33,086 bases of DNA from Thermoplasmatota archaeon (GCA_041658815.1 JBAZZN010000001.1:1-33086), one strand, 5' to 3'; positions 5,276 through 21,041 are shown, numbered from the stretch's first letter. Program-made: numbers and translations. The notes: generated from the letters alone by a model not told the origin.

Positions 5276-5288
5276 GCCCAACCTCCAG

Positions 5289-7007: not shown

Positions 7008-7013
7008 CACGCG

Positions 7014-7289: not shown

Positions 7290-8299
7290 GCTTCCTCGTC
7301 GTCTCGGTCATCGTCGCGTTCGTGGCAGGCATCGTCGCGCTGGCCATGCCGTGCTGCTTCAGCGTGCTGTTGCCGTCCTATTTCGCGAGCGCGTTCCGCA
7401 AGCGGACGGCGGTGCTATCGATGACGCTCGTGTTCGCGGGCGGGATCGCGGCCGTGATCCTCCCGGTCACGCTGCTTGCCAATGCGGTGGGCGGCTTCCT
7501 CCGCGAGCGGCACAGCGTCCTGTTCGTCGCCGGCGGCTTCTTCATGGTGCTACTGGGACTCGTCTCCCTGTGGGGCAAGTCCATCATGCCGCAACTGCGG
7601 CTGCCCATCGACCTCAAGCGCACCAACGCGGCCGGCGTCTTCACGATGGGCGTCTTCTCGGGTGTGGCGACCTCGTGCTGCGCGCCGGTGCTTGCGGGGA
7701 TCATCGTCCTCTCCGCGCTCTCGACGTCCGTTCTCGCGACGATGCTCATCGGCGTCGCCTACGTGGCCGGCATGGTCGTTCCCTTGCTTGCCGCGGCCCT
7801 GCTCTGGGATCGCTCTGCCACGCGCAAGGACTCCATCCTCAGCGGGAAACTGCTGCGCTTCCGGTTGGCGGGCAAGCCCGTCGAGATCCACTCGTCGAAC
7901 CTCATCGCCGGCATCATGTTCACGCTGATGGGCGCGTTCACGATCGTGCTCGGCCTCACCGACACGATGATCCCGACGCCGGGTCTGGTGGAGGTCGGCC
8001 TCTTCCAACTGCGGCTCGAGAAGGCGGCCGAGGCGTGGTCCGCATCCCTCGCGGGCCAGATCCTCGCATGGGCGATCGTGATCGTGGGCGTCGCGCTCCT
8101 CGCCGTCCTCCTGCGTCGCGGCCTCGCGAGGACGCCGCGCGCCACGAATACCAGCGCCATCGACCCCGTCTGCAAGATGCGCGTCGATCCCGCGTCGGCG
8201 CGGTGGTCGAGCACCCGCAGGGAAGCCACGTACCACTTCTGCTCGGCAGGATGCAAGGACGCGTTCGACGAAGCCCCCGTCTCGTTCGTGCCTGAGTAA
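7286..8299 (+). CDS. CcdA/DsbD-like transmembrane thiol-disulfide protein fused to a C-terminal YHS/TRASH metal-binding domain
   Basis: Polytopic membrane domain with two Cys pairs (AMPCCFSVLLP, VATSCCAPVLAG). The C-terminal DPVCKMRVDP....ATYHFCSAGCKDAF matches the YHS domain pattern. Confidence 0.75.
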   Translation: MSFLVVSVIVAFVAGIVALAMPCCFSVLLPSYFASAFRKRTAVLSMTLVFAGGIAAVILPVTLLANAVGGFLRERHSVLFVAGGFFMVLLGLVSLWGKSIMPQLRLPIDLKRTNAAGVFTMGVFSGVATSCCAPVLAGIIVLSALSTSVLATMLIGVAYVAGMVVPLLAAALLWDRSATRKDSILSGKLLRFRLAGKPVEIHSSNLIAGIMFTLMGAFTIVLGLTDTMIPTPGLVEVGLFQLRLEKAAEAWSASLAGQILAWAIVIVGVALLAVLLRRGLARTPRATNTSAIDPVCKMRVDPASARWSSTRREATYHFCSAGCKDAFDEAPVSFVPE

Positions 8300-8303
8300 G
8301 TCG

Positions 8304-9728
8304 GTGATGAAGTTGCTCGGTCGCGCTCGTCGCTACGGCGGAAACCTCAGGCGCCGGAACATCGCGCCGTCGCTCAACGCAGCGAGGCCCGCCTGGCTCT
8401 CCGTGCTCCTGGGGGTCGGCGTCTGGGTCATCGCCTGGTACTTCAACGACGTCGGTCTCGACGCTCTTCACCACGGCGCGGTCGTTTGGCTCGTGGGTCT
8501 CGTCGCAGTCGGATACGCGGTCGTGGGGCTCTACAAGGAGGTGTCGAACCGCGTCAAGTTGCACAGATGGTTGGCCCTCGCGGCGAACGATCCGGAAGAG
8601 GCGCTCAAGCAAGCGGAATCGATCCAGCGCTTCTCTCGCATGCTTCCCCCATGGCTCCTGCGGTCCTTCCACGAGACACGCGGCGAACTCCGCCGTGGGG
8701 GGCACCGCAACGAGCGGGGACCCAGCGTGGAAACCGACGCGATCGAGCCGACACACACGCGCCTCCGACCGCCGCAAGTCACGCTCCTCGCGCTGGGCGC
8801 CCTGATCGCAGTCGTGGCGCTCGCCGCTTGGCTCTCGCCCGAGAGGATCTACTACCCTATCGTCTGGAGGTACTACTGGGGCCCCATCGTGAGCGACTAC
8901 GCGGGCGGGCCGCTCGTGCGGGGTGGCGTGACCGCGGATCCCGGATACAACGTGATGGACACCACCACATGGGCACTCATCCTCGGCGTGAGCCTGTGGA
9001 ATCTCCTTGATTCCCTCCGCCGCCGCGGCTTCCGGCTGACCCGCGCGTTCACCTACAGCCTCGTCCCCATGATCATCGCTGGCGGCACCATGAGGGGCCT
9101 CATCGAGGTCCACTGGCTTCCCGCTCCCTGGGCGTACTTCTTCATCACGCCCCTGATCTACGTCGTGTTCTTCCTCTACACGCTGGGAGCCCTCCTCCTC
9201 GGCATGCGGTGGGAGGAGCGTGGATCCGGCGGCGTCCGGCATTGGCATCTCACTCTTGCAGCCGGCATCCTCGCCGTCTTGATCACGTGGGGCGGGTGGG
9301 GAGTCCTCCTCTGGGCGGACCCCGCGGGCATCCGATGGAGCGTCCTATGGAGGATCTTCGGGACCAGCACGCTACTGACGGCTGGCATCGTGGCGGTCCT
9401 TTGGGTCCCGCGCATCCGCTTCGTTCGGGACCCGCTCTACGTGCTCGTCCTCTTCGGGCAGATCGTCGATGGGATGCAGAACTACGTCGGCACGACGGAA
9501 GGTCACGTCTCGAAGATGCTGGGGCCCCACTTCTTGGTCGCTTCCCTGGGGAACTCGGGGCTCCTCATCGCCAAGGTCTTCCTCATCGTCCCCCTACTTG
9601 CGTACCTCAAGGCGAAGGTGGAGCCCGAGGAGGACGGCAACGTGCTCCAGCTCGTCCTCCTGACCATCCTCGCACTCGGGCTTGCGATGGGCTTCCACGG
9701 CGGCGTCGGATTGCTCCTGGGTGAGTGA
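8304..9728 (+). CDS. DUF63-like archaeal integral membrane protein with a ~160-aa N-terminal extension
   Basis: 474 aa and many TM helices. The core (ADPGYNVMDTTTWALILGVSLW ... PMIIAGGTMRGL ... HFLVASLGNSGLLIAKVFLIVPLL) resembles DUF63 as I remember the family. This is recall, not a search result. Confidence 0.55.
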   Translation: MMKLLGRARRYGGNLRRRNIAPSLNAARPAWLSVLLGVGVWVIAWYFNDVGLDALHHGAVVWLVGLVAVGYAVVGLYKEVSNRVKLHRWLALAANDPEEALKQAESIQRFSRMLPPWLLRSFHETRGELRRGGHRNERGPSVETDAIEPTHTRLRPPQVTLLALGALIAVVALAAWLSPERIYYPIVWRYYWGPIVSDYAGGPLVRGGVTADPGYNVMDTTTWALILGVSLWNLLDSLRRRGFRLTRAFTYSLVPMIIAGGTMRGLIEVHWLPAPWAYFFITPLIYVVFFLYTLGALLLGMRWEERGSGGVRHWHLTLAAGILAVLITWGGWGVLLWADPAGIRWSVLWRIFGTSTLLTAGIVAVLWVPRIRFVRDPLYVLVLFGQIVDGMQNYVGTTEGHVSKMLGPHFLVASLGNSGLLIAKVFLIVPLLAYLKAKVEPEEDGNVLQLVLLTILALGLAMGFHGGVGLLLGE

Positions 9729-9788
9729 CGCGACGAGTACCAAGCCGCACCTCCTCAATGCAACCCCACCACTGACACGATCACCACG

Positions 9789-9989
9789 ATGAACGCGACC
9801 TTCCCAACGGGCCGCGACGGGACGAGTGCGGTATGGGATGGCTCGAACGCCTACGTCTTCGGAGGCAGCAACACCGATGGGAACCTGAACCAAATCGTGC
9901 GCTACACACCCCTGGGCTCGGCGAGGCCCGCGTCATCTCGGCTTCGCAAGAAGCACGAAACGAGGCCCGGTGTCCTCCAACTCCTATGA
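9789..9989 (+). pseudogene. Orphan Kelch-repeat fragment
   Basis: GRDGTSAVWDGSNAYVFGGSNTDGNLNQIVRY is a single Kelch blade. There are no further blades or signal peptide, and the rest of the ORF is low-complexity. Confidence 0.35.
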
Positions 9990-10065
9990 ACCACCCGACT
10001 TGCAGGACTATCTCGCCGCCCTCAGAATAGGGCAAGTCGAATTAACACAAATGCTATTATGGTAA

Positions 10066-10911
10066 GTGAAGTTAACCTATCTCGTGGCCTACCTGCCAGC
10101 CGTCCTCGGGACCCCCCTCAAGGGGCGCGTGCTTGAGCGGCTGCTCCGTCGCGGGCCGGGGACCGTGACGGAGCTCGCGGCCGACCTCGACGCGACACGT
10201 CAGCAGATCACGAAGGTCGTCGCCGAGCTCGCCCTCTTGGGCGTCGTTCGCGAGAAGCCTGGTGAGGATCGTCGTACGACGGTCGTGAGCATCGACGAGG
10301 AGCACCCCTTCGTCGAGCCGCTACGCGTACTCGCGATGGACGGCGGCACGTGGTACGAGACGCCCGAAGCGTGGCAGGTGCTCCTCGCGCGCCGCTACGG
10401 CCAGGATTGGTACATCGGCGGTTACGCCGCGATCCGTCGCGTCATGCAGCCCATCGACTTCGAAGCGCCCAATGTCCTTGCCAACGTCCGCGCCGCGGAA
10501 GGAAAGCTCGACGTCGCGAGCGCGCTCCAACGCGCGAGCGGCATCCAGCTCCAGGTGCGCCGCATCGAGCACATTCCTCCAGAGGTCGTCGCCGCCCGCG
10601 CGCGCGGCGTCGAAGTCTGGTTCGCGACGCCCGAACGCGGCTTCGTCGAAGCGTGGAAGCTCAAGGAGATCCCGCTCTACGGACTCATGCTCTGCCTCGT
10701 CCAAGGCCTCCACGAGGCCGTCCTCGACCCCACGAAGCTCATGAACGTCGCTCCCGCCGAGGGCATGCAAAGCGAGGTCCCGACCCTTCTCGCGGCAGCA
10801 CGCGAACGCCTCCCGCTCCGTGAGCTCGCCCGGCCGCTGAAAGCAACGCGCGCGCTAAAGCCGAGCGAAAAACAGGCCCTCGAACAGGCGATCAACACGG
10901 TGGTGGGCTAA
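10066..10911 (+). CDS. AbiEi-like antitoxin / wHTH regulator of a type IV toxin-antitoxin system
   Basis: N-terminal wHTH (GRVLERLLRRGPGTVTELAADLDATRQQITKVVAELALLGVV) plus a C-terminal domain. It lies directly upstream of, and abuts, an AbiEii nucleotidyltransferase gene. GTG start at 10066. An in-frame GTG at 10084 lies about 29 nt after the TATA-like TATTAT, so a leaderless mRNA is possible. Confidence 0.65.
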   Translation: MKLTYLVAYLPAVLGTPLKGRVLERLLRRGPGTVTELAADLDATRQQITKVVAELALLGVVREKPGEDRRTTVVSIDEEHPFVEPLRVLAMDGGTWYETPEAWQVLLARRYGQDWYIGGYAAIRRVMQPIDFEAPNVLANVRAAEGKLDVASALQRASGIQLQVRRIEHIPPEVVAARARGVEVWFATPERGFVEAWKLKEIPLYGLMLCLVQGLHEAVLDPTKLMNVAPAEGMQSEVPTLLAAARERLPLRELARPLKATRALKPSEKQALEQAINTVVG

Positions 10912-11871
10912 GTGGCGCGTGTCCTCCTGAACGCCGACGAGAAGGCCGCCGCCCGCGCCCTCATCCAGAAGACGTGGGATGCCCCCAACGTGACGCGCGA
11001 CGCGCTCACGAAGGCGGCCGACCCCTTCGGGGTCAACCCCCGCGAAGCCTACGCGAGCCTCCTCCACCTCGACACTCTGGACGCGCTGCGTGACCTGGAG
11101 TTTCTCGTGTTCAAGGGCGGCACGTGCGTCCAGACGTATCTTCCGCCCGCGTTCCAGCGCATCAGCGTCGACCTCGACTTCAACAGCCGATATCCGCACC
11201 CCAACACGGTCGAGAACGCGATCGTGGATCTCAATGCGCGCCTGCGTGCCGACGGCCGCGCCGCGACCATCCACGGCCTCGAGTACGGCTCGCTCATCCC
11301 CCAAGGTCACGACGAGCACACGGGGACCGTCGCATTCGCGCGCTACCTGCCCACGCCCTTCGACGAGACCGCGATCCTCGCCGGCACCGAGTTCCAAGCG
11401 CGACTCATCCGCGTGCAGATCAACGTGAAGCACCACGAGCTGCCGGCGCTCGATCCAATGCGACGCAAGGTCGAGTTCTTCATCCAGAAGACGCTCCAGC
11501 CTCGCCATGATATCAAGGTCGAGTGCGCGAGCGCCGCCGACCTCGAAGCGGATAAGATCCTAACCATCACGAAGAACGTCGGGGGCTTTGGCCGCGAGCG
11601 CATCAAGGACTTCTACGACCTTTTCGCCCTCAGTCGCACGAAGATCCCGCAGGACCGTGTCCGCGAGAAGCTTGACCGCGTCGCCAAACAGGCCAATGCC
11701 AAACGCGAAGACATCCTCAAGGGCGCGATCGAGCGCGCTGAGGACGTCCGCGCGCAGCACGCGACCGCGAAAGGTTTCGTCACCAGCGCCTGCAAGGACG
11801 GCAAGGTCCTCCTCGAAACGTGGGAGATGGAGATAGACGCGCTCCAAGAACGACTCCGCGCGATGCTCTGA
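10912..11871 (+). CDS. AbiEii/AbiGii-family nucleotidyltransferase toxin (DUF1814)
   Basis: FKGGTCVQTYLPPAFQRISVDLDF matches the family hallmark (KGGTAL..RFSEDLDF, a Pol-beta NTase G-G/S..DxD). A downstream KDFYDL motif is also present. GTG start sits immediately after the upstream stop. Confidence 0.85.
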   Translation: MARVLLNADEKAAARALIQKTWDAPNVTRDALTKAADPFGVNPREAYASLLHLDTLDALRDLEFLVFKGGTCVQTYLPPAFQRISVDLDFNSRYPHPNTVENAIVDLNARLRADGRAATIHGLEYGSLIPQGHDEHTGTVAFARYLPTPFDETAILAGTEFQARLIRVQINVKHHELPALDPMRRKVEFFIQKTLQPRHDIKVECASAADLEADKILTITKNVGGFGRERIKDFYDLFALSRTKIPQDRVREKLDRVAKQANAKREDILKGAIERAEDVRAQHATAKGFVTSACKDGKVLLETWEMEIDALQERLRAML

Positions 11872-11934
11872 CGCAGGCAAGACTCATTCTTCTGGGTCTT
11901 TCAGAAAGACTCGATCTTGTGAGTCTTATCGGCA

Positions 11935-12009
11935 TCAGTCGAACAGACGGGCGACGGCCCGCGCCGTCTCGTTCACGAAGCGCCGTCGCTCGCGGCGTCG
12001 AGTTTCCAT
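11935..12009 (-). CDS. Short ORF, copy 1 of a conserved C-terminal module (...RRRFVNETARAVARLFD)
   Basis: METRRRERRRFVNETARAVARLFD*. Its differences from copy 2 (13061..) in the conserved part are almost all at third codon positions. The longer ORF to 12138 crosses the att-like repeat, so I consider it unlikely. Confidence 0.4.
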   Translation of the reverse strand: METRRRERRRFVNETARAVARLFD

Positions 12010-12017
12010 TACCATGG

Positions 12018-12059
12018 TTTGCCCAACAAATCCGTCTGTCGAGGTTGAGTGGGGTGAGC
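12018..12059. repeat. att-like direct repeat holding the last 10 nt of tRNA-Phe plus its 3' flank
   Basis: 12047-12059 (gagtggggtgagc) is identical to 16099-16111. The upstream block ccaac-aaatccgtctgt matches ccaaccaaatccgtttgt at 16074-16091. Confidence 0.7.
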
Positions 12060-12203
12060 AAGCAGCCCCGATATCCGGATTTGTGCAGAGTGCGGCGGCA
12101 GGCCACTCCTTTCTGCAAGCGAGGATAGGTGGTTCCACTCTCCGAATTGCGGGCGAATACCCGTCCCCTATATGGCCGACCAGCGTGATCGCGCGGTGCT
12201 CGC

Positions 12204-13064
12204 ATGTCCATCCCGTCGGGGCCCGTGCACGCGCTCGACACGCACCCCATCTATCAGAACGCGCGACATACGCTACAAGGCCTGTTCACCGGTGAGGCGG
12301 ACGCCGAGCGAGCGGCGGCGCGGCTCGCAGATCAGAAGGGGAAGCTCGTCATCGCCTACACGCTCACGGCGCCGGACGGCTCCACGTTGTATGCGGTCGC
12401 TGCGCGCGAGCCTGTCGTTCGCCAACGACGCGCAAACATTCCGCACGACCGGACCGTTCCCTGGCAGGCAGTGAGGATCGCGCTAGACGCGTTCCGTAGC
12501 GCTGAGCGCGAGACGCGTGCCTCCGGCGCTCCGCTCCGGTGGTACAAGAAGCTCGAGGTTGACAAGCTTCGCCGCGTCCTCCTCGGATACGATTGGTCGG
12601 GCTCGAAGTTGGACGTTGCTTCGCGAATGATGAGCACCACCATCCTCACGCACCCGTTCCCGAACGCGAATCACCGGACAAGCATCACGCTCGCGAAGTA
12701 CTACCTGGCGAGCGAAGGCGTCCAATGGCCGCCTTATTCGCTTCGTGGTCGCGGCATCGACCGCTTTATCGCTGAGACCGAGCCCCATATCGTGCTGAGC
12801 AAATACCTCATCCAGCTGCGCCGCCGCCAGCCGCTGCTGTGCGTCGCACGAGCGGCTGGTTACACGGACATCGTCATCAAGCAAGGCTTCAATGCCAAGA
12901 TCGACGCCGCGGACCTCGAACTTTCCACCGAAGACATCGAGAAGAAGCACCAGGCGCGCTGCCGTGCGCTCATCGAAAAGATCGACGACGGAAAGAACGC
13001 GGACGAGCTCGGCCGCGAGGGCACGCGCGGCCTACGAGAATTCGTCGCGTGGTACTTCGGTTAA
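12204..13064 (+). CDS. Fic/Doc-family protein with a variant Doc-type motif and a long N-terminal extension
   Basis: THPFPNANHRTSITLA fits the Doc variant of the Fic motif, HxFx(D/N)(A/G)NKR, with His in place of Lys. At 286 aa it is far longer than the ~126-aa P1 Doc. Confidence 0.65.
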   Translation: MSIPSGPVHALDTHPIYQNARHTLQGLFTGEADAERAAARLADQKGKLVIAYTLTAPDGSTLYAVAAREPVVRQRRANIPHDRTVPWQAVRIALDAFRSAERETRASGAPLRWYKKLEVDKLRRVLLGYDWSGSKLDVASRMMSTTILTHPFPNANHRTSITLAKYYLASEGVQWPPYSLRGRGIDRFIAETEPHIVLSKYLIQLRRRQPLLCVARAAGYTDIVIKQGFNAKIDAADLELSTEDIEKKHQARCRALIEKIDDGKNADELGREGTRGLREFVAWYFG

Positions 13065-13318
13065 TCGAAGAGACGAGCGACCGCCCGAGCCGTCTCGTCC
13101 ACGTACGCCCGACGCGCCGGCGAAAGCTTCGGGGACCGAAACGGGACCCAACCTGGAGGGACTTCGTCAGCTGCCGCCTTCGGCGCCAACGTTGGGCGAA
13201 ACACCTTGACGTTCGAGAGTCGCGGAGCCTCGACGACTGCCCGGCTTGACCGGGCCACCCGACCGACCCCGACCTTGCGAGCGCTACGACTTCGGCTGGG
13301 CATGCACTTCACACTCAC
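13061..13318 (-). CDS. Small ORF, copy 2 of the ...YVDETARAVARLFD module
   Basis: 85-aa ORF ending SPKLSPARRAYVDETARAVARLFD*. It converges on the Doc-like gene with a 4-nt overlap. The pattern of synonymous differences from copy 1 supports coding. The start is uncertain. Confidence 0.45.
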   Translation of the reverse strand: MSVKCMPSRSRSARKVGVGRVARSSRAVVEAPRLSNVKVFRPTLAPKAAADEVPPGWVPFRSPKLSPARRAYVDETARAVARLFD

Positions 13319-13404
13319 CCCTATGCAGTCGATAGAAGGCTTAAGGTTGGGCCTTAATCGAAGGCAAATCGCGCCGTGAAATCCCCTGATAAGAGACTCA
13401 TTTC

Positions 13405-14067
13405 TTGAGCCGTATTGAAAGACTCACTTTTCCAAGCCCTGAACTTGGCGTCCGCAAGTTGGCGTACGCATGTCTCCCGGTGAGGCACGCGCTCGACTTC
13501 GACCCTCCATACGCGATCCCCGTCGTTTCGCCCAAGCTCACGAAGCGGCCGCCGCGCCCCTCGCCTACGATCATCTGGCGCGACTACGATCCGGAGGACG
13601 TTGGCAAGACCACCCTTCTCTTCCCGACCTGGGCCAAGGATGACCCCGACCAAAGCAAGCGCACGCTCCCGACGCTTCACCCGAAAGAGAGCCTCGCGAT
13701 CCTCGCCGCGACAGGAGACTCTCGTTTGACGGAGGCCGTCTTGCGCACCGCAAAGAAGCCAGATATCAAACGCGAAAGCGTCGCCACTGCCGCGAGGCGG
13801 CTCGCCATCGAGCCGCCCTCGCGCCGCCTCCACTATCCGAACTCAATTGTCTTGCTAAAGTGGCTCCTCCGGTTCGCGGAGACCGCGCGGGCGATGAGCG
13901 CCAAGGAGCGCATGACGCAGGATCTCCTCGGAGGCGGCCCCGCGGGATATCCGACGCGACGCATCGCGAAGTGGCGCGGCGCATGGTCGCCGAACTGGGT
14001 CCGCCATCGCCGAGCACGTCATTGTCACGAAGGCCGTCGCCTACGGCGACTGCCTCGGCAAGCATGA
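13405..14067 (+). CDS. Hypothetical protein (element cargo)
   Basis: 220-aa ORF with a TTG start and no recognisable motif. The Arg-rich C-terminal third may not be genuine coding sequence. Confidence 0.35.
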   Translation: MSRIERLTFPSPELGVRKLAYACLPVRHALDFDPPYAIPVVSPKLTKRPPRPSPTIIWRDYDPEDVGKTTLLFPTWAKDDPDQSKRTLPTLHPKESLAILAATGDSRLTEAVLRTAKKPDIKRESVATAARRLAIEPPSRRLHYPNSIVLLKWLLRFAETARAMSAKERMTQDLLGGGPAGYPTRRIAKWRGAWSPNWVRHRRARHCHEGRRLRRLPRQA

Positions 14068-14129
14068 CGCGCGACGGCCCGGGCCGTCTCGTTCACGAAG
14101 CGCCGTCGTTCGCGCGACAAGCGCGGCGC
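14067..14129 (-). pseudogene. Truncated copy 3 of the small-ORF module
   Basis: Manual translation gives APRLSRERRRFVNETARAVARH.... It lacks the LFD* end, has an in-frame TAG just upstream, and diverges from copies 1 and 2 exactly at 14066/14067. Confidence 0.4.
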
Positions 14130-14234
14130 CTAAGACTCCAGCTCAAAGAACATGCGCCCCAACCAGCGCCGATACGACCCTGCCCTCCAAACCGCCACGA
14201 AAGACCTTATGCATCTCCTCGACGACATCTGTAC

Positions 14235-14840
14235 GTGAGCCCGCGCCGAGCCCTCGCGCTCACCTTGCTTGCAATAAGTCTGAGCGGCGCGGTTGCATGG
14301 GTTCGACCACAGGGTTACGACGCTCCGGCCTGGTCGTTCCTCCTGCTTGTCGGCGTCATTGGCATTGCAAGCGGCGCTTGGAGCGCACTATTCCTGCCAT
14401 TGGCGGCTATTGAATTGCGGTGGCGCGGCGCACAGGTCGCAAGTGGACTTCTTCCGGCATTCGCGGTCGCGATCCCCGCCGAGTGGATGCTGAAGATGGT
14501 CGTCCGCGGACAGCTTGCCTCTGCGCCAACCGCCGAAATCCTTGCATCCTCGCGGGTAGAAGTGCTCCTCTACGCAGTCCTGCTTGTCGCAGGTGTTGTT
14601 GCCTGGTCGATTCACATCTACCGTGCGACAGCCGACATGCGGAGAGTCCTCTGGTGGAGTCCCACCTTGCTATTCCTCGTCCCGATTTCCGTTTGGGCGA
14701 CGCGGCTTGGCCTCCCAATGCTCATCGGCATCGCCACGCAGATCCTCGTCGGATTTGCATTCATCCTTGAAGCCCTCAGACCTCCAACGCGTCAACGCCT
14801 TCCGACGGCGCCAGGCGACACAATTGAGCCGCCGGCGTAA
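14235..14840 (+). CDS. Hypothetical polytopic membrane protein (element cargo)
   Basis: Internal GTG of ORF 13860..14840. From VSPRRALALTLLAISLSGAVAW onward it has 5-6 hydrophobic helices. The upstream 125 codons are Arg/Pro-rich and unlikely to be coding. Confidence 0.5.
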   Translation: MSPRRALALTLLAISLSGAVAWVRPQGYDAPAWSFLLLVGVIGIASGAWSALFLPLAAIELRWRGAQVASGLLPAFAVAIPAEWMLKMVVRGQLASAPTAEILASSRVEVLLYAVLLVAGVVAWSIHIYRATADMRRVLWWSPTLLFLVPISVWATRLGLPMLIGIATQILVGFAFILEALRPPTRQRLPTAPGDTIEPPA

Positions 14841-15040
14841 CTGCCACCGATGCCCAGCGCCGCGAGCATCGCCTTCGTCTCGGCGAGGACCTCCTGCTTC
14901 TTGCGATCCTGAATATCCTTCTCCGCATCCGGCGAGATCGGCCGGCGGCACCGCTGGCAGAACGTCGTCGTGTGCGGGTTCCGGTGCTCGCAGTACCGGC
15001 AGATGAGCTGCGAGAGTGCGGGCCCCGAGTGCTTGCCCAC
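14792..15040 (-). CDS. Zinc-ribbon domain protein
   Basis: CRYCEHRNPHTTTFCQRCRRPI matches the common zinc-ribbon pattern CxxC-x..NP..x-FCxxC. GTG start. It is in the same frame as the integrase ORF, three codons downstream including the TGA. Confidence 0.5.
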   Translation of the reverse strand: MGKHSGPALSQLICRYCEHRNPHTTTFCQRCRRPISPDAEKDIQDRKKQEVLAETKAMLAALGIGGSYAGGSIVSPGAVGRR

Positions 15041-15046
15041 GAGAGT

Positions 15047-15964
15047 TCAGCCCAGCTTCGCGCGCTCCGTCACCGCGCTGTGACGCCAGACGTGCGGGTT
15101 GCAGTCCTTCTTCAGGCCCGACTTCTTACCGGCGCGGTAGCACCACACGAGGAGCGAGTTGGGGCTCAGCCGCGTGCCGGGCGCGCGGCGGCTCCACGAG
15201 AACCACAACGGCGCCAATGGCTCGTTCTTCTTGGGGTGCTGGTCGATCCACGCCTTGAGGTAGTCCACGCAGTCGAAGACCCGGATGCGCCGCGCGCCCG
15301 TCTTGAGTCCACGCACGCCCTTGGAGAGCGTGAGGACGGCGCTCCAGATGCCGCCTTCGAGTTCCTCGAAGACGACGCTGCCCACGTTCAACGCGCAGAA
15401 TTCGCCCGCGCGGAACCCACTCTCGTACAAGACCGCGATCTCCGCCTTGTCCTGCACGCCCACATGCGCAAGCAGGAGCCGCGCGAGGTCCGCGCGCGTG
15501 ATGAGCGCGTCCGTCGGAATGTGGTCCTCGCTCCGCTTCACCTTGAGGCCTTTCGTCTCGGGCGGGTCCTGGTCGTCCGTGCCCCGCATCCACCGGAAGA
15601 ACGGCTTCAGGACTTCCTTGCGCTGCGCGAGCGTGCGAGGCGCAAGCAGGATCGGTTGCTCCGTGTCCGTCGTCGAGCCATCCACCTTGCGGCTCCGGAA
15701 GAGGCGCATGCTCTTCGCGTTGTTCACGTAGCTGATGACGTCGATCCTCGTCGACGCCTGCAAGTTCCGCATGCCGATGTGCACGCAGAAGCCGCGCAGG
15801 CAGTTCGCGTGAATCGTCAGCGTGCTTGAGCGAAGCCCGACGGCTTGGCGCTCTTGCAGCCACGTTCGCACGACGTCTCGGTTCTCACGCAGGGGGATCG
15901 TCTCGAGGATCCGCTCGATGCGTTCCCACACTTCAGCGTCTGTCTTCGTAGAGATGCTTGACAC
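15047..15964 (-). CDS. Tyrosine recombinase/integrase (XerC/D-like) lacking the C-terminal catalytic-Tyr segment
   Basis: N-terminal SAM-like domain. Catalytic domain has box I Arg (ESGFRAGE), a Lys hairpin (LSKGVRGLKTGARRIRV) and HxxR (HVWRHSAVT). The ORF stops 9 residues later (ERAKLG*), before the expected LGH...Y. Confidence 0.75.
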   Translation of the reverse strand: MSSISTKTDAEVWERIERILETIPLRENRDVVRTWLQERQAVGLRSSTLTIHANCLRGFCVHIGMRNLQASTRIDVISYVNNAKSMRLFRSRKVDGSTTDTEQPILLAPRTLAQRKEVLKPFFRWMRGTDDQDPPETKGLKVKRSEDHIPTDALITRADLARLLLAHVGVQDKAEIAVLYESGFRAGEFCALNVGSVVFEELEGGIWSAVLTLSKGVRGLKTGARRIRVFDCVDYLKAWIDQHPKKNEPLAPLWFSWSRRAPGTRLSPNSLLVWCYRAGKKSGLKKDCNPHVWRHSAVTERAKLG

Positions 15965-16067
15965 GACTCGTCACGTTTCCCGCGGACGGGAAGACCATTG
16001 CGACGCGCGTAGGCAGGCCACTCATCGAACCGCGAGTCGAAAACTCGCGGCCGAGTATGTATTTGGC

Positions 16068-16111
16068 CTTTCGCCAACCAAATCCGTTTGTTCTGTATGA
16101 GTGGGGTGAGC
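16068..16111. repeat. att-like direct repeat overlapping the 3' end of tRNA-Phe copy 1
   Basis: Partner of 12018-12059: a 13/13 identical core plus a conserved upstream block. Confidence 0.7.
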
Positions 16112-16174
16112 CGGGCTCGAACCGGCGACCTCATGATCTTCAGTCATGCGATCTCCCAACTGATCTACCACCCC
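16102..16174 (-). tRNA. tRNA-Phe (anticodon GAA), intron-less, CCA not encoded
   Basis: Hand fold of GGGGTGG-TA-GATC-AGTTGGGA-GATC-G-CATGA-CTGAAGA-TCATG-AGGTC-GCCGG-TTCGAGC-CCGGC-TCACCCC-A. All four stems pair (7/4/5/5 bp), with U33, G37 and T-loop TTCGAGC. Confidence 0.9.
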
Positions 16175-16219
16175 AGTTGGCGTTTGGCGAATGCGGGGAA
16201 GCCTCGAAAGGCTTCCGAC

Positions 16220-16413
16220 CACGGTGAGCCGGGTTCGAACCGGCGACCCCGCGAGCGAAGCGAGCGGCGACGACGCGAGGCGCGCTTCAGCGCGCCGGTG
16301 CCCGGAGGCACGCGTCGGAGTCATGATCTTCAGTCATGCGATCTCCGGACGCGTCTGCGGACGCGTCCTCTCGCGCATCTGCGGATGCGCGATCCCAACT
16401 GATCTACCACCCC
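16220..16413 (-). tRNA. Second tRNA-Phe(GAA)-like gene with two large insertions (candidate non-canonical introns) and a divergent 3' acceptor end
   Basis: Collinear with copy 1 apart from four differences. There is a 49-nt insertion in the D-loop (within 16344-16395; the boundary is ambiguous by 3 nt). There is a 72-nt insertion at 16249-16320, between tRNA positions 44 and 45. The T-loop reads TTCGAAC. The 3' strand TCACCGT gives a G2:G71 mismatch. Confidence 0.6.
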
Positions 16414-16452
16414 AGTTGGCAGACGTCGGATTCCGCTTCCCGTATTTGAGCC

Positions 16453-19296
16453 CTACCGCGCCACGGGGACGACGGTCTGCGCTTCTGATTGGACTTCGCG
16501 CGCCACGACGACCGCGCTCGCTTCGGGCGGCGGGTAGAAGAGCGGCACGAGGATGGTCGTGCTCAGGAAGATGCTCACGATGGCGAGTGCCGCCGCGAGG
16601 GCGCCTTGGCTCGACAGGACGAGCTTCATGGGGACGAAGAGGAGGAACGCGACGACCGTGGCGATGACCACGTACAAGTTGGCCTTGCCAGTCGTGCGGT
16701 ACACTTCCTCCATGCTTCCGACCTCGCGGTAGTTCCACACGTACTGGATGGCGTAGTCCGAACCGACGCTGATCAGCATCACGGTGGGCAGCATGAGCGT
16801 CATGCTGGCCTTGATGTCGAAGAGCGGCAAGGCTCCCAGCCACCAAACGCTCGCGATGATCATGGGGATCATGACAGCAAGGGTGTCGCGTGCTTTGAGG
16901 AAGACGAGAATGGCGATGCTGAGCACCGCCGCGCCGCCCACGTAGAGCGGCAACTGCGCGTGGGTGATGTAGCCTGAGACTGCTGCGAATGCGACGGCGC
17001 CACCAGGGAGGAGCCCGAGGAATTGTTCGGGACGGCCCAGCACGGCGATGGCGATGATGAGCGTGAGGAACGTCGCGATGTAGCCCACGTAGTCTAGCCA
17101 CGGCATTCCGTACTCGACGAAGAGGTAGAACGTGTCCTGCGTGCCCACGAGGTCCACGGAGCGCAGCGTCGAGGGACGCTGCATGGTGGGTGCGTTCGCG
17201 CAGGCGTAGCCGGTGGGGGTATTGCCGACGTCGCAATTGAGGTTGTTCCAATCGTCCTTGAGGCTCGCGTAGTCCTCGTTCCCGATCTTGTAGAACACAT
17301 GCGTGACGGCGAAGTTGGAGTCCGGCGACACGAAGATCGCTACTAGGGGTGACCAGATCGGGTTCGTGTACATGTATTTGATATCTGCCGCGACGCGCGC
17401 CTTGTCCATGGGGATGTTCACATATGGATCCGCGCCTGGCTGCTTCTCATAGGCGATCGCAGGGTTGTAGAGGCCAGCTTTGAGATCGTAGTACGTGCGT
17501 AGGCCCAACATGAGCGACGCGATGTTGGATGACTTTGGCACGTGTTTGCTGTCCCTTAAGAACGATTGGTCCAGGGACGCGATGTATTTGAGTGTCGCAG
17601 GGTCGGCGATGCCGCCGGGCTCCTTCGATTCGAACACGACGAGCTCCGTGCCGGAGCCACCGAGCGCTTGGTTGTAGAAGCGATAGCTCTCCTCGACGTA
17701 GTCTCCGTCCTTGAAGCCGCCCGAGATCCCGAAGTACTCCTCGATCTTCGTGCTCTCGTAGGCTAGCGCGCCCGTGACGATGACGACGAAGGCGATGGTC
17801 GCGACGCGGTTCTTCGTGATGGCCTTGCAGACGCCGCCCATCAGGATGGATGGCTTGAATGGCTTGACCTTGGCCTTCGTCTTGCGGACCGACTGGGCTG
17901 CGGGGATGAACGTGATGGAGAGGAGGAAGAGCGCACTGAACGAGAAGACCGTCAGGAGCGCGAGGTCGCGCATGATGTGGAAGCCTGCGAGGAACATCGC
18001 GAGGAGGCCGGCCACGCTCGTTATGCTCGCGATGGCGAGGGCTGCGCCAGCGCGGCGCCCCACCATTGCCCAGACGACTTCCTTGCTGCGGTCGGACGCG
18101 CTGTACTCCATGTACTGGTTCGTGACGTAGATGGCGTACTCTTTGCCCACGCCCATCGTGATCGGTACGATGAGGAGGCCGAAGAACGTGAGTGGGATGT
18201 GCAAGTAGCCCATCAGGCCGTACGTCCACACGAGGCCCATGCAGAACGAGACGAACGCGATCAGCATCGACGGCACGTCGGTGAACGCGACGACGAGCAC
18301 GAGGAACGTGACGATGAAGACGATGGGGCCCCACGTCTGGAAGTCGCTTTGCGCCAGCTCCGTCATGTGCCCGTTGATCGATTGGCCCAGGATGTAGGTG
18401 TGATCACAGTTGAAGGCGGGCCCGTTGCCAAGGATGTTCTTTTGCTGAAGAGCGGGGCAGCCCACGTCGCGCCATTCCTGCGCGGCGTGAACGAACTTCG
18501 TCGCGACTGGCACGACCTTCTCGGGGCCTTCCTTCGTGATGTTCAGGTCGTAGATGAACACCAGGATCGCGCCCGTGAAGTTCTCGTTCGTCTGCGCTTG
18601 GACGACGTCTTGTGCCGCGGCGAAGAGGACTTGGTAGTCGCGGGCGAACATGGCCGAATCGTCGGGCAGCGCGAAGGCGGAGGCGTCGGGCTCCTTGAGG
18701 GGTTTGCACTGGTCGATCGGGATGCCACCTGGCGGCGCGGCCGGGATCGCGCCGATGGAGCACGACGGGTTGGGAACGCCGCTCGCGGTGTAGTTGATGA
18801 GTTTCACGAGGTAGGGAAGCGTGATCACGTAGGGCATCTGCGCCTTTCCCGTCACGGGGTCCGTCATCTTTTCTTGGATGAACTTCGTCGCTTCTTCCGC
18901 CGCGCGGATGGAGCGCTCGCTCGTGATGTTGTCGCGGTGACAGTTGGGGTCGCGTTCTCCGCTCGCGTCGAGGGCGTTTGGATCGCACACCGTGCAGCCT
19001 TGACCGCTCTGGTCGCACTTCTGGGCGGCCTGCGAGACCTCGATCCACAGCGTGTCGGCGTTCCGGAACCCAGGGAGCTCAGTGAGCGCGCGGTAGTTCG
19101 CAGTCGCTGAGGGGTGATCGTCTGGCATGAGGTCATAGTCGGTCGATCGGACCTGGATGCCCGTGAGACCATATGCGAACACGAGCGTGACCACAAGGTA
19201 GAACGCGAGCACGACCTTCGCTCGGCGCGCGCTCCACGTGAAGATCTTCGAGACAGCGTTCCCGATGAGGTGGTCGAGATCCAGCACTCTATGCAC
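16453..19296 (-). CDS. RND-superfamily (MMPL/COG1033-like) exporter
   Basis: 947 aa with the duplicated architecture TM1, large extracytoplasmic loop, 5 TM, repeated twice. N-terminus RAKVVLAFYLVVTLVFAYGL...; typical of predicted archaeal RND exporters. Confidence 0.75.
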   Translation of the reverse strand: MHRVLDLDHLIGNAVSKIFTWSARRAKVVLAFYLVVTLVFAYGLTGIQVRSTDYDLMPDDHPSATANYRALTELPGFRNADTLWIEVSQAAQKCDQSGQGCTVCDPNALDASGERDPNCHRDNITSERSIRAAEEATKFIQEKMTDPVTGKAQMPYVITLPYLVKLINYTASGVPNPSCSIGAIPAAPPGGIPIDQCKPLKEPDASAFALPDDSAMFARDYQVLFAAAQDVVQAQTNENFTGAILVFIYDLNITKEGPEKVVPVATKFVHAAQEWRDVGCPALQQKNILGNGPAFNCDHTYILGQSINGHMTELAQSDFQTWGPIVFIVTFLVLVVAFTDVPSMLIAFVSFCMGLVWTYGLMGYLHIPLTFFGLLIVPITMGVGKEYAIYVTNQYMEYSASDRSKEVVWAMVGRRAGAALAIASITSVAGLLAMFLAGFHIMRDLALLTVFSFSALFLLSITFIPAAQSVRKTKAKVKPFKPSILMGGVCKAITKNRVATIAFVVIVTGALAYESTKIEEYFGISGGFKDGDYVEESYRFYNQALGGSGTELVVFESKEPGGIADPATLKYIASLDQSFLRDSKHVPKSSNIASLMLGLRTYYDLKAGLYNPAIAYEKQPGADPYVNIPMDKARVAADIKYMYTNPIWSPLVAIFVSPDSNFAVTHVFYKIGNEDYASLKDDWNNLNCDVGNTPTGYACANAPTMQRPSTLRSVDLVGTQDTFYLFVEYGMPWLDYVGYIATFLTLIIAIAVLGRPEQFLGLLPGGAVAFAAVSGYITHAQLPLYVGGAAVLSIAILVFLKARDTLAVMIPMIIASVWWLGALPLFDIKASMTLMLPTVMLISVGSDYAIQYVWNYREVGSMEEVYRTTGKANLYVVIATVVAFLLFVPMKLVLSSQGALAAALAIVSIFLSTTILVPLFYPPPEASAVVVAREVQSEAQTVVPVAR

Positions 19297-19547
19297 TCCC
19301 GTCCGAAAGCATCATTCTGGGAGTTATTAAGGGCTGGGTTCGGGTGGGGCTTGTCTCGTATCCCGGTCGGCTCGGGCGGCTCGTTGTGGGTCAAGCCAGT
19401 CGGTGCGGATCGCCAAGCGCGCGTTCCGAGAGCACCCGACGCAGCACACGGGGCGGGACCGTGTCCGCGGAGCGTGCCGCGAACGAGTCTTGCTGTGCTC
19501 GCCCACGAGCGCATCGCTTTCCAAACGATTAAGTCCCCTCTCCCCGA

Positions 19548-21041
19548 GTGCGAAGCATGCCGCTTCCCCAGGAGGAACGCCTCGCCGCGAGGCACCGCGT
19601 GGTCGCCCTCGTCGGCGGGGTCCTCGCGCTGTGGGCAACGAGCGGTCTGTTCGCGACGCTCCTTGACGGGCGCGTCAACGCGTTCGTGCTCCTCCTCGTG
19701 GCGTTCCCGCTTGGCAGCGTCGCGCTCGTCATCACGCGCACGGGGCATTGGCGCATCGCCTCATTCCTCGCCACGCTCGCCCTCGTCCTGATCATCGCCG
19801 GCCACGTGCTTGGTCCCCTTGGCGCCCCGACACGGCCACTCCTCATCCTTCCCGGCACGTTGGGGCTCGTCCTGCTCGTGATCGTCGCCCTCGCGGTGCC
19901 GCTTCTCGCAGGTTGGCGCTCGGACGCACTCGACCGTGCCGCCTGGACGACTGGCCGCGCTCCACCGCTGCTGCGCTCGCCATTGGACTGGCGCGCCGTC
20001 CCCGCCAACTACGCGGGAGGGTTCGGCCTGGCTGGGCAACTCGCGCTCGAAGCCGCGTTCTCCTGGCGCCCGGCCACCGCGCGCATAGGGCTCGATGTCA
20101 CACGCGAGGACCTCGCGGCTGCCCTCGCGGAAGCGGGCGCTACGTGCGAGCCGCGGGGCGGCACGACGCTGGCCATCACGCTCCCTGACGACGGCGGACA
20201 GGTGCGGGCGGACCGCGTCTGCCTCGCATTCCCCAGACGAGCGCATGCTCTCCGTGTGCGCGGCGAGAGCGCGGCCGTCCGGCGCGCCGTGCTGCTCATC
20301 GAGTCGCTCAGCGTCGGTTCGTTCGCCCGCACCGAAGCTGGCCGCCGGTTCGAAGCGCGCATCAACACGATGCTGCGTGACGCCGTGTGCGCCAACACTC
20401 TCGAAGAGCGCAGCCTCCTCGCCGAGGAAGCACAGCGGCTGGAACGCATCCTCGACGCGCGTGACCTGCCGCCGCACGAATGGACAGCGCTGCGCGCATG
20501 GAAGACACAGCGCCTCCGCCTCGCCATCGCCACCAAATTGCTATCTGAGCCAGCGGGCCCACGCGCTGAGGGCCGCGTCATCGCGCCCGCGCCCGCACTC
20601 TCCCCCGACCTCTCGCGCGTGCTCGACACGGGCCAAGGCCTCTCGACCCTGCGCCGCATCGTGTTCGTCCCCCACTGGATCGTGCCCGTGCGCGACGCGA
20701 GCGGCGAGCGCGAGGTGCTCGTGAACGCGCTCACGCACAAGCCAGAAGTGATGCAAGGCGACGAAGTGCTGCGAGCTGCCCGCGAGCAAGCGCCCTCGTT
20801 CTTCCTTGATGCGCCGCGCTCGGTGACGTTCTTGCCCGCGCCTGAGCCCACCGCGGCCGTTCTGCGCGATCTTCGTGAGGCGTTCCCCCACGCGGATGTT
20901 TCGCCCGCGGTGGCCGGCCCCGCAGAGTGGCTCCTCGTGCCATTCGTGCCAACAAGCGAGGGCTACGTGAACGCCGTGACTGGCCAGAAGGCGCCCGACC
21001 TCGGGCCAGCGGCGGGAGTGGCGGCGGTCACGCGACCGTAA
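19548..21041 (+). CDS. Hypothetical protein: N-terminal 4-TM domain plus a ~350-aa soluble domain of unknown function
   Basis: Long ORF with normal amino-acid composition and clear TM helices in the first ~120 aa. I recognise no motif. Confidence 0.55.
   Translation: MRSMPLPQEERLAARHRVVALVGGVLALWATSGLFATLLDGRVNAFVLLLVAFPLGSVALVITRTGHWRIASFLATLALVLIIAGHVLGPLGAPTRPLLILPGTLGLVLLVIVALAVPLLAGWRSDALDRAAWTTGRAPPLLRSPLDWRAVPANYAGGFGLAGQLALEAAFSWRPATARIGLDVTREDLAAALAEAGATCEPRGGTTLAITLPDDGGQVRADRVCLAFPRRAHALRVRGESAAVRRAVLLIESLSVGSFARTEAGRRFEARINTMLRDAVCANTLEERSLLAEEAQRLERILDARDLPPHEWTALRAWKTQRLRLAIATKLLSEPAGPRAEGRVIAPAPALSPDLSRVLDTGQGLSTLRRIVFVPHWIVPVRDASGEREVLVNALTHKPEVMQGDEVLRAAREQAPSFFLDAPRSVTFLPAPEPTAAVLRDLREAFPHADVSPAVAGPAEWLLVPFVPTSEGYVNAVTGQKAPDLGPAAGVAAVTRP

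Follow-up and report, generated by a model that had tools for sequence, protein, structure and literature searches.

A probable dead element and the remains of an earlier one at the 3' end of tRNA-Phe in an archaeon

Islands can accrete in tandem at one tRNA attachment site, where successive integrations give attL-E1-attP-like-E2-attR arrays. At phage HP1-type attachment sites the element carries whole tRNA genes, and integration restores the tRNA operon. Among the Thermoproteales there are tRNA genes that contain multiple bulge-helix-bulge (BHB) introns at non-canonical positions. The island PYG1 lies in the tRNA-Gln gene of Pyrococcus yayanosii, with 44-bp direct repeats at its flanks (PMC9897764, PMC5126054).

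Here we describe a tRNA-Phe locus in a window of 33,086 nt, the whole stretch of DNA analysed (GCA_041658815.1 JBAZZN010000001.1:1-33086), from a Thermoplasmatota archaeon; the host is a GC-rich archaeon of Thermoplasmatota type. We consider it probable that the locus holds a dead small element (E1) at the 3' end of tRNA-Phe beside the remnant of an earlier element (E2), and that a second tRNA-Phe copy is a separate matter. The event at tRNA-Phe is of an ordinary kind of integration. The features of E1 and its target are as follows.

16102-16174, minus strand: tRNA-Phe(GAA) copy 1 (ARAGORN; Rfam RF00005, 64.8 bits)
16098-16111, minus strand: core repeat at Y, the left junction (attL), an exact repeat of 12046-12059
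15965-16097, minus strand: integrase-proximal (P') arm of E1 with ACGGATTTGG, aligning with the tRNA-to-integrase spacers of L001, L040, L039 and L004
14792-15964, minus strand (read from 15964 to 14792): tyrosine-recombinase pseudogene (Pfam PF00589 and homologue alignment)
12060-16097, no strand assigned: E1, 4.0 kb, bounded by the X and Y cores (X-Y interval ~4.1 kb)
12060-14791, no strand assigned: remainder of E1 (GC3 profile, gene calls, Pfam marks)
14068-14791, no strand assigned: stretch of E1 with weak coding signal (GC3 profile)
13405/13480-14067, plus strand: 195-220-aa ORF of E1 (gene call)
12204-13064, plus strand: DUF8172 protein of E1 (gene call and Pfam mark)
12063-12084, no strand assigned: inner (P) arm of E1 with CCGGATTTGT, inverted relative to the ACAAATCCG motif across the core (inverted repeat)
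12046-12059, minus strand: core repeat at X, the distal end of E1, an exact repeat of the Y core

A first-pass annotation had described three sites, X, Y and Z, that share sequence, and all three are present where it placed them. X (12018-12059) and Y (16070-16111) have in common the core TGAGTGGGGTGAGC plus a diverged flank. The core, previously given as 13/13, is indeed there, and its identity is 14/14 because the preceding T is also common to both sites. The flanks align over 42 nt at 79% identity, with recognisable similarity extending ~70 nt. Z is the corresponding tRNA 3' segment of the second tRNA-Phe copy, and the 7-bp GGTGAGC once proposed as a crossover core makes no meaningful match by itself, being tRNA sequence common to paralogous copies. 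The arrangement is not an assembly artefact, because an independent assembly from another sample reproduces it wholly in two contigs 100% identical to the window (L043, spanning window positions 14790-20588 with both tRNA copies, and L006, spanning 9493-14776). The GC content of 12060-16100 (0.62-0.65), which had been suggested as a check, does not set this interval off from its flanks (window ~0.65); this low contrast counts against our preferred explanation.

The exact 13-mer GAGTGGGGTGAGC occurs twice in the window (12047-12059 and 16099-16111), against ~0.08 occurrences expected by chance, and both lie at tRNA-related positions. Chance or low-complexity matching without any integration might be argued from the GC-rich sequence, in which 11-mers with two mismatches are as common as chance predicts. 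The 13-mer statistics, the adjacent integrase and the association of its family with tRNA-Phe refute this origin, to which we give next to no credence.

Copy 1 is intact, has no intron and is identical in sequence to the tRNA-Phe of locus L004. The Y core comprises the last 7 acceptor-strand nucleotides of the tRNA together with its discriminator and CTCA, and this tRNA 3' segment is repeated directly at the distal boundary (14/14 core), as in elements that target tRNA genes. Directly 3' of copy 1 lies the integrase, whose catalytic domain matches PF00589 (Phage_integrase; E=3.2e-9, 37.2 bits vs a cutoff of 27.1). Six homologue loci, at 54-72% identity, have the integrase, equally oriented, immediately 3' of a single tRNA-Phe without an intron (close homologue loci counted: L001-3, L040, L004, L013/L028, L039). 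An integrase adjoining an intact tRNA was found in the window, in these six loci and for every homologue found at 54% identity or above; homologues at 44-48% identity are not at tRNA-Phe. The integrase-adjacent tRNA-Phe of the relatives sits in a conserved host context (NUDIX gene, g19548 homologue).

Empty sites, which the first-pass annotation had named as a means of checking integration, exist in relatives. Locus L012 (=L026) is syntenic with the window, sharing the g19548 homologue, an MMPL protein (63.6% identical, 948 aa) and the same promoter motif, with a single tRNA-Phe and T-runs and with neither integrase nor copy 2. The tRNA-Phe sites of L019 and L021 are likewise empty, and in another host the tRNA loci of L027 and L028/L013 are identical and diverge directly after CCCCACTC, so that L027/L028 are polymorphic at the core. 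A same-strain empty site was sought and not found, the only orthologous one belonging to a fairly distant relative (MMPL 64% identical). Since the integrase adjoins copy 1, six relatives are placed likewise and the syntenic relative locus is empty, Y is attL at the tRNA 3' end. Copy 1 is the integration target and forms the attB half of attL. Site-specific integration at tRNA-Phe, as first proposed, is well supported.

The integrase itself is a pseudogene, because it has an in-frame TGA (15047-15049, after LG) and has lost the W...Y segment, including the catalytic Tyr, in a deletion of ~39 codons. Aligned homologues carry WNEAQMRAFFGW...SVYTHL... in the missing segment. The catalytic set R...K...HxxR...H/W...Y is incomplete in the window, where R185, K221, H291, R294 and H295 are kept, and complete in homologues P0001, P0003-6 and P0009. 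Full-length homologues (423-448 aa) align across the stop codon, taking in 95% of the sequence when it is read through. A C-terminal CxxC...CxxC zinc ribbon is kept; we know of no description of such a ribbon in characterised archaeal integrases. The ORF begins at 15964, which is 134 nt away from the core, and its N-terminus aligns from residue 1 with the full-length homologues; the SSV-type (partitioning) arrangement, with attP inside the integrase gene so that integration leaves the gene in two pieces at the element ends, was not found. Because the integrase lacks the catalytic Tyr, excision to a circular form carrying attP is predicted to be unlikely. Family searches of the remainder of E1 (12060-14791) gave no matches except a sub-threshold Doc-like one.

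The locus resembles tRNA 3'-end islands with non-partitioning tyrosine integrases, such as PYG1, in that the integrase adjoins an intact tRNA, the far boundary carries a partial repeat of the tRNA 3' end, there is accessory or defence cargo, and relatives have empty sites. It differs from them in that the repeat contains just 7 tRNA nucleotides, the rest being trailer and conserved arm, in that the integrase is inactivated and bears a zinc ribbon, and in that the distal repeat abuts the arm of another element instead of host DNA. This last difference concerns the following features.

11990-12045, minus strand: flank 'a', a P'-type arm of the older second element E2 (local alignment to integrase-side flanks)
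10912-11871, plus strand: AbiEii nucleotidyltransferase (Pfam PF08843, E=8e-18; PADLOC AbiEii)
10066-10911, plus strand: AbiEi-like wHTH protein, 281 aa (weak wHTH matches only)

Flank 'a' (ACGGATTTG...ATGGAAACTCG) aligns locally with integrase-side flanks at scores of 20 (Y of the window), 22 (L001), 18 (L040) and 14 (L039), compared to 6-9 with the flanks of seven empty sites and a shuffled null maximum of 9.4 +/- 1.4. At all seven empty or alternative sites the host flank consists either of T-runs or of unrelated sequence. Flank 'a' is the arm of an element and not host DNA. As it belongs to the integrase-proximal arm family, X is an element-to-element hybrid junction and not a true attR. 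The core at X is bracketed by CAAATCCG motifs in inverted orientation, within an inverted repeat (12026-12047 and 12063-12084) whose arms are 77% complementary with 15 nt between them.

A single 4.1-kb element, with a true attL at Y, a true attR at X and flank 'a' as host downstream sequence, would account for the 14-bp direct repeat with its diverged flank and for the integrase just inside Y. We think this unlikely, since flank 'a' matches the arms on the integrase side of other elements and not the host flanks, the AbiE toxin-antitoxin pair stands immediately beyond it, and the genes downstream of tRNA-Phe in syntenic L012 have no counterpart left of X. From the earlier proposal of X and Y as element ends we therefore retain a ~4.1-kb integrase unit bounded by them, with crossover in the core at the tRNA 3' end, and on the arm scores we drop the host origin of flank 'a'.

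In the AbiE pair (10066-11871) the AbiEii gene is preceded by the wHTH AbiEi-like gene, and its position makes it probable cargo of the E2 remnant. Within 21 kb left of X we found no third core copy, no host-type T-run and no recognisable distal host junction of E2. This counts against the preferred explanation, as it is the arm similarity that carries the extent of E2 and hence the tandem model. The order in the window, tRNA - core - P'1 ... P1 - core - P'2, is exactly that predicted for accretion at a regenerated attB. Unlike in a full tandem array, the second element consists of an arm and perhaps the toxin-antitoxin pair, and no terminal attR was found.

In the preferred explanation, copy 1 would be the attachment site of a tyrosine-integrase family that recombines at the very 3' end of the tRNA, within a core of 13-14 bp (GCTCACCCCACTC). 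The order of events that we infer begins with the integration of E2; the related E1 would then have entered the regenerated tRNA, giving tRNA - core - P'(E1) - integrase ... P(E1) - core - P'(E2), where Y reads as attL and X as an attP-like E1/E2 hybrid junction. Both elements would subsequently have decayed, E1 losing the catalytic tyrosine of its integrase and E2 its integrase, so that at most the arm and probably the AbiE pair are left of E2. With both decayed, the arrangement would be frozen in place.

Upstream of copy 1 lies the second tRNA-Phe copy.

About 16220-16413, minus strand: tRNA-Phe paralogue, copy 2 (exons shared with copy 1)
16344-16392, minus strand: D-loop insertion of copy 2, 49 nt (comparison with copy 1)
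16249-16320, minus strand: insertion of copy 2 between positions 44 and 45, 72 nt (comparison with copy 1)
16175-16219, minus strand: spacer between the copies, with the hairpin GGAAGCC-TTTCGA-GGCTTCC, then GCATTCGCCAAAC, then GCCAACT (homology to the L025 spacer)
16428-16450, minus strand: promoter-like motif CTCAAATACGGGAAGCGGAATCC directly upstream of copy 2 (similarity to the L019 and L013 leaders)

The exons of copy 2 equal those of copy 1 except for one T-loop difference (TTCGAAC vs TTCGAGC), and both copies are preceded by the same 7 nt, GCCAACT. After GCTCACC, copy 2 has GTGG, the reverse complement of CCAC, in place of CCAC, and then resumes with TC. Its acceptor end shows the G2:G71 mismatch noted in the first-pass annotation, a G1:U72 wobble and a G73 discriminator. 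Neither ARAGORN nor the Rfam tRNA models detected copy 2, and spliced copy 2 does not fold with an intact acceptor stem. Manual checking for the required 4-bp central helix found no BHB motif at either insertion: the helix would require TCAT-TCGC pairing at the 72-nt insertion and pairing of TTGG or GTTG with TCCG or GTCC at the 49-nt one, and no register fits. As the insertions lack BHB splice motifs, the label of an intron-bearing host tRNA, given to copy 2 earlier, is doubtful. The insertions do break an otherwise perfect tRNA at the D-loop and at 44/45, as in the intron-containing tRNAs of Thermoproteales; in contrast to these, neither boundary allows a bulge-helix-bulge to be drawn, the acceptor stem has defects, and an intact intron-less copy follows 49 nt downstream.

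The same layout recurs in another organism, at locus L025, where an insertion-bearing copy, a homologous hairpin spacer and an intact copy lie behind a NUDIX gene, at a locus in which no integrase of the family was found. The 72-nt insertion is homologous to the same-site L025 insertions (0/1000 and 2/1000 shuffles reach the observed scores), as is the spacer to that of L025 (3/1000), and the distance from copy 2 to the spacer hairpin is equal in both. The spacer resembles the 3' portion of normal leaders, such as that of L002, and appears to be a mini-leader for copy 1. The CTCAAATACGGGAAGCGGAATCC motif is the sole significantly leader-like part upstream of copy 1 (score 29; null 17.7 +/- 2.6) and may serve as the promoter. 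Because copy 2, spacer and copy 1 recur as a module in L025 without E1, copy 2 was not created by E1 and is independent of its integration. Relative to L012, the window has extra DNA, which is copy 2 or else the spacer together with copy 1, and this counts against the preferred explanation.

In the alternative put forward earlier, 12060-16222 integrated at GGTGAGC within an intron-bearing copy 2, damaged this host tRNA and brought copy 1 as its replacement, much as in HP1-type sites with an element-borne intact tRNA beside the crossover. The junction so implied is copy 2 with a perfect GCTCACCCCA end joined to flank 'a' without copy 1, and the circular junction would be ...GGGGCTGCTT-GCTCACC-GTGGTCGGAAGCC. 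Copy 2 does leave the tRNA sequence after GCTCACC, within the 13-bp core, and stands directly behind the ancestral promoter motif, as the insertion-bearing copy of L025 stands behind a native leader; orthologous L012 has a single tRNA. However, copy 2 resumes with TC after four changed bases at the hairpin distance seen in L025, and the L025 insertion-bearing copy leaves the tRNA sequence at other positions. Compared by hand with its own tRNA, copy A of L025 has only substitutions in the 3' strand (7/11 positions match), with the lineage-specific G68 kept. The conserved P' arm motif adjoins the 13-14-bp core at Y, 120 nt from the proposed crossover (16223), and the integrase-adjacent tRNA is a host gene in conserved synteny in the six related elements; unlike at HP1-type sites, the hybrid copy would stay unrestored. 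Together with the L025 module and the missing BHB motifs, this makes the alternative very improbable. The 3' strand of copy 2 looks decayed rather than cleanly broken, and its departure inside the att core could be the trace of an older integrase-mediated event.

Under the preferred explanation, copy 2 would be an insertion-bearing paralogue placed behind the tRNA-Phe promoter and ahead of the functional gene, probably co-transcribed within the leader, its exons probably held identical to copy 1 by gene conversion and its 3' edge decayed. Alternatively, copy 2 might not be a decaying duplicate but a structured RNA with a function, retained as a mimic of tRNA-Phe in the leader of the genuine gene. 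The module is present in two organisms that differ in tRNA-Phe sequence and upstream genes, in both genomes the exons match the local tRNA exactly, the 44/45 insertion is significantly homologous between them, and the pairing of its basal stem is kept via double changes at 4 pairs across 3 sequences. This reading has an outside chance, as the module occurs in only 2 of ~15 distinct archaeal tRNA-Phe loci examined, a metagenome scan for the D-loop-insertion form gave no match, gene conversion can account for the exon identity, mutation alone can also yield perfect palindromes, and covariation statistics would need more than three sequences. In its fuller form, to which we assign a small probability, copy 2 would be a conserved structured RNA, with an anticodon arm, a covarying 44/45 hairpin insertion, a T arm and a disabled acceptor end, transcribed in the leader at an integration hot spot. 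If so, it might act as a decoy or regulatory mimic for tRNA-directed enzymes, such as nearby-encoded nucleotidyltransferases of the AbiEii/MenT type, or alternatively as a protective element of the attachment site.

The three sites reported by the first-pass annotation to share sequence around tRNA-Phe, X (12018-12059), Y (16070-16111) and Z (the same tRNA 3' segment in a second tRNA-Phe copy), are present as it described them. For the 13-nt match of X and Y, GAGTGGGGTGAGC has just two occurrences in the window (12047-12059 and 16099-16111), against a chance expectation of ~0.08. The core becomes 14/14 once the preceding T, common to both sites, is counted, and the adjoining flanks share 42 nt at 79% identity (repeat family D4). 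The window forms the right-hand end of an ENA metagenome contig of 67,964 nt. An independent assembly from another sample contains contigs 100% identical over window positions 9493-14776 and 14790-20588, and the arrangement of the locus is therefore no assembly artefact. Same-strain Logan contigs (L006, L043) both stop at 14776-14790, just beyond the end of the integrase remnant, where coverage could drop or the strain could be heterogeneous. The GC content is ~65% without a step at the proposed element borders, which makes composition uninformative as a marker. The locus, in minus-strand order, is laid out as follows.

16453-19287, minus strand: MMPL-family transporter, followed by a promoter-like motif
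16220-16413, minus strand: copy 2, a tRNA-Phe paralogue bearing insertions, followed by a 45-nt hairpin spacer
16102-16174, minus strand: copy 1, the intact intron-less tRNA-Phe(GAA), followed by a 134-nt arm
15964 to 14792, minus strand: tyrosine-recombinase gene
~2.7 kb between the integrase and X: a DUF8172 protein and poorly coding DNA
Left of X: an AbiEi/AbiEii toxin-antitoxin pair, then metal-resistance genes

The recombinase family has the 3' end of tRNA-Phe as its target. All placeable homologues of at least 54% identity share one location and orientation, immediately 3' of a lone intron-less tRNA-Phe (P0001 at L001-3, P0003 at L040, P0004 at L004, the L013/L028 protein and P0023 at L039). 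The host genes upstream of these occupied tRNAs, which unoccupied loci have too, are a NUDIX gene and one homologous to window gene 19548-21041. None of the homologues at 44-48% identity (L007-L010, L044-46) is at tRNA-Phe, and they are therefore uninformative on this att site. Unoccupied sites exist in relatives. Locus L012 (the same as L026) shares synteny with the window: after the homologue of the gene at 19548 come an MMPL protein (63.6% identity across 948 aa), the TCAAATA(G)GGG motif again, a leader of ~115 nt, a lone tRNA-Phe and T-runs. An integrase and a second tRNA-Phe copy are both absent from L012, and its downstream genes have no match to window 1-16100. The tRNA-Phe sites of L019 and L021 are also unoccupied. 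The proposal of site-specific integration at tRNA-Phe, with empty sites to be found in relatives, is thus borne out. In L027 and L028/L013, which come from another host, leader and tRNA do not differ; divergence sets in directly after CCCCACTC, and L028/L013 alone carry the integrase element. The junction therefore lies in the core common to X and Y. AbiEii and MMPL look-ups for a same-strain empty site or variant returned only the same arrangement, and the attP and tRNA patterns gave no match in viral contigs. The L012 contig (JAJPHT010000045.1, 132 kb) is titled as a 'Proteobacteria bacterium' MAG; the fetched stretch is syntenic with the archaeal window and has the same tRNA-Phe variant and promoter box, which probably points to an error of binning or labelling. 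In a genome scan, the unusual tRNA-Phe variant with D-stem GATC/GATC occurred, among archaea, only in Thermoplasmatota/Thermoplasmata-labelled MAGs, which identifies the lineage of the host. A haloarchaeal host, suggested by the GC content and by matches to HVO-type domains, was rejected on this ground.

With the TGA at 15047-15049 read through, the window integrase is covered to 95% by full-length homologues (423-448 aa). It lacks ~39 residues, 'WNEAQMRAFFGW...SVYTHL...RRGLK' in alignment A1, and with them both the catalytic Y and the conserved W. Still present are R, K and HxxRH as well as the C-terminal CxxC...CxxC ribbon. Judged by its sequence, the enzyme is dead and the element that encodes it (E1, 12060-16097) is immobilised. 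A complete N-terminus, 134 nt away from the core, excludes the SSV partitioned type for this integrase. The L039 integrase (9423-10732) is likewise broken, into 139-aa and 243-aa pieces, and P0010 and P0013 are frameshifted fragments; integrase decay is common in the clade, and many tRNA-Phe islands seem to be fixed remnants. For the cargo of E1, Pfam, NCBIfam and PADLOC gave only DUF8172 and a sub-threshold Doc-like match. The cargo beside family integrases consists mainly of defence genes (L001 4914-11232; L039 15734-20732; L004 6976-13404; L007 11737-13536; L009 11679-21296), comprising type I restriction-modification, RmuC and HATPase with Z1 and DUF4420, a ThiF/multi-ubiquitin/BubE set, and HEPN and DUF499 with DUF1156. 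A search of IMG/VR for relatives of the integrase gave one marginal match.

Two att models had been put forward. The first, in which X and Y are the att repeats of a ~4.1-kb element, is essentially right for both sites, with the amendments that the element is immobilised and that X appears to be a junction between two elements. After the core, the family-conserved sequence on the integrase side reads CTCA..., then ACGGATTTGG, then GGCAAAACC, then ..ATGGAAACTCG. The outer flank of X (flank 'a', 11990-12045) aligns locally to the integrase-side flanks of Y, L001, L040 and L039 with scores of 20, 22, 18 and 14, versus 6-9 for seven empty-site flanks; shuffled sequences gave a best score of 9.4 +/- 1.4, with a maximum of 14. 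Empty sites carry T-runs where the family arms would stand. Inverted CAAATCCG motifs lie on both sides of X (inverted repeat I10), as expected of attP. Because the outer flank fits the arm pattern and these motifs bracket X, we interpret X as P(E1)-core-P'(E2), where P is the inner arm, P' the integrase-proximal arm and E2 an older neighbouring remnant. E1 would have integrated into a tRNA regenerated by its earlier relative E2, a tandem reading suggested by the similarity of the arms. E2 has no integrase, and its arm runs straight into a 49-nt repeat and then the AbiE pair; no third core copy or distal attR was found within 21 kb left of X. Extra GCTCRCCCCAC matches in L026, L013 and L019 were dismissed as chance, those read (L026, L013) being inside coding sequence. 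In the tandem arrangement, a chromosome without E1 would join copy 1 to flank 'a' as GGTTCGAGCCCGGCTCACCCCACTCAACCTCGACAG, and an E1 circle formed via the 13-bp core would read GGGGCTGCTTGCTCACCCCACTCATACAGAAC.

The second model placed integration at GGTGAGC in copy 2, with copy 1 as a replacement carried by the element. It predicts a junction of flank 'a' with an end-restored copy 2, reading GGTTCGAACCCGGCTCACCCCACTCAACC, and a circle reading GGGGCTGCTTGCTCACCGTGGTCGG. With the integrase dead, none of the four junctions predicted by the two models is expected to occur. The break in homology between the two copies at the core had been taken in its favour, but the break is not clean: GCTCACC-GTGG-TC versus GCTCACC-CCAC-TC. 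On the tRNA strand, the four changed bases of copy 2 (GTGG, window 16220-16229) are the exact reverse complement of the CCAC in copy 1, and homology resumes at TC. This looks like an inverted 4-bp segment and may be coincidence. Against integration in copy 2, the crossover adjoins the conserved arm, 120 nt away from 16223; the tRNA beside the integrase is the host gene in relatives, not an element-borne one; and the module of copy 2, spacer and copy 1 recurs in L025 without a family integrase nearby. The model is not supported.

Copy 1 is the only tRNA called by ARAGORN and Rfam. The exons of copy 2 (~16220-16413) are those of copy 1 except for one T-loop difference, and the 7 nt upstream of the tRNA are common to both (repeat family D5). 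Copy 2 has two insertions.

16344-16392: 49 nt, in the D-loop
16249-16320: 72 nt, between tRNA positions 44 and 45

Its description as an intron-bearing host tRNA is poor, because manual inspection found no possible bulge-helix-bulge at the borders of either insertion, its acceptor stem is defective and it is missed by ARAGORN and Rfam alike. The L025 module likewise comprises an insertion-bearing copy, a hairpin spacer and an intact copy, based on a different tRNA-Phe variant, with a NUDIX gene upstream. The 44/45 insertions of the two loci are homologous (observed scores reached by 0/1000 and 2/1000 shuffles), as are the hairpin spacers (3/1000), and the distance from T arm to spacer hairpin is equal. 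The basal stem of the 44/45 insertion keeps its pairing through double changes at 4 pairs across the three available sequences, and the insertion's tail (GTCGCCGCTCGCTTCGCTCGCGG) resembles a degenerate T arm and acceptor strand. In L025 the 3' strand of the insertion-bearing copy shows scattered substitutions relative to its own tRNA (7/11 matches by hand comparison) and keeps the lineage-specific G68; this copy lies behind the native long leader and therefore holds the position of the normal gene. Downstream of the intact L025 tRNA-Phe (4985-5186, minus strand) are two more partial units, each after CCAACGCATGCNNCCAGG: positions 27-73 with a homologous 49-nt insertion at 44/45, and positions 27-40 with part of the insertion. 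AT-rich DNA and a toxin-antitoxin-like gene pair follow these units, which bring the total to four tRNA-Phe-derived units.

Copy 2 sits directly behind the conserved promoter motif, the only upstream part significantly similar to relatives. Nothing promoter-like is evident in the spacer, and transcription of copy 1 therefore probably runs through copy 2. Extra tRNA-Phe copies occur in only 2 of ~15 distinct archaeal tRNA-Phe loci, and searching metagenomes specifically for a tRNA-Phe interrupted in the D-loop gave no match. Two origins for the insertions were rejected: MITEs, since they are unique within 55 kb of contig and all fetched loci, and relics of relatives' long leaders, since only the promoter motif is significantly similar. 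On the most economical reading, copy 2 is a duplicated tRNA scarred at an integration hot spot; gene conversion with the adjacent gene would keep its exons uniform as the edge decays. It may instead be a functional tRNA-like leader RNA.

A conserved TCAAATA(G/C)GGG promoter-like box stands upstream of the clade's tRNA-Phe genes (window 16428-16450; L012 4729-4853; L019, L013, L002, L004, L029, L031, L037, L039). Behind it is an unusually long, hairpin-rich 5' leader of 55-150 nt, usually with TGGCGGCTCC. The 49-nt repeat beside the E2 arm has three copies.

11946-11994: first copy, between the E2 arm and the AbiE pair
13072-13120: inside E1, 94% identical to the first
14066-14114: 76% identical to the first

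The copies lie just 3' of plus-strand genes and contain competing GC hairpins. On the minus strand they encode a conserved peptide end, ..RRFVNETARAVARLFD*, with the amino acids kept even at 76% DNA identity; the peptide ...FVNETARAVARLFD had no counterpart outside this contig. The repeat could be a terminator module or a small-gene relic.

Many islands and proviruses integrate into the 3' part of a tRNA gene, with a partial tRNA repeat marking their distal end, and tandem accretion at one tRNA is known. The att question has an ordinary answer: the locus is a tRNA-Phe integration hot spot with decayed, probably tandemly accreted elements. It works like other tRNA-gene islands, such as PYG1 of Pyrococcus yayanosii, integrated at the 3' part of a tRNA gene (PMC9897764, PMC5126054); sublocation preferences of integrase subfamilies are reviewed by Williams 2002, as cited in PMC9897764. 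The differences from such islands are minor: the window repeat holds very little of the tRNA, inverted motifs occur in the conserved arm, the integrase ends in a zinc ribbon, and both elements are decayed. The locus exemplifies how a repeat flank can be the arm of another element and not host DNA, which matters for automatic island-border calling. The target and core are now defined for an uncharacterised clade of zinc-ribbon-tailed tyrosine integrases, whose cargo in GC-rich Thermoplasmatota of soil and sediment includes defence and toxin-antitoxin genes. The one unusual item at the locus is the tRNA-Phe paralogue, which in two organisms precedes the real gene and carries a conserved insertion; should it prove functional, it would represent a novel type of tRNA-like leader RNA.
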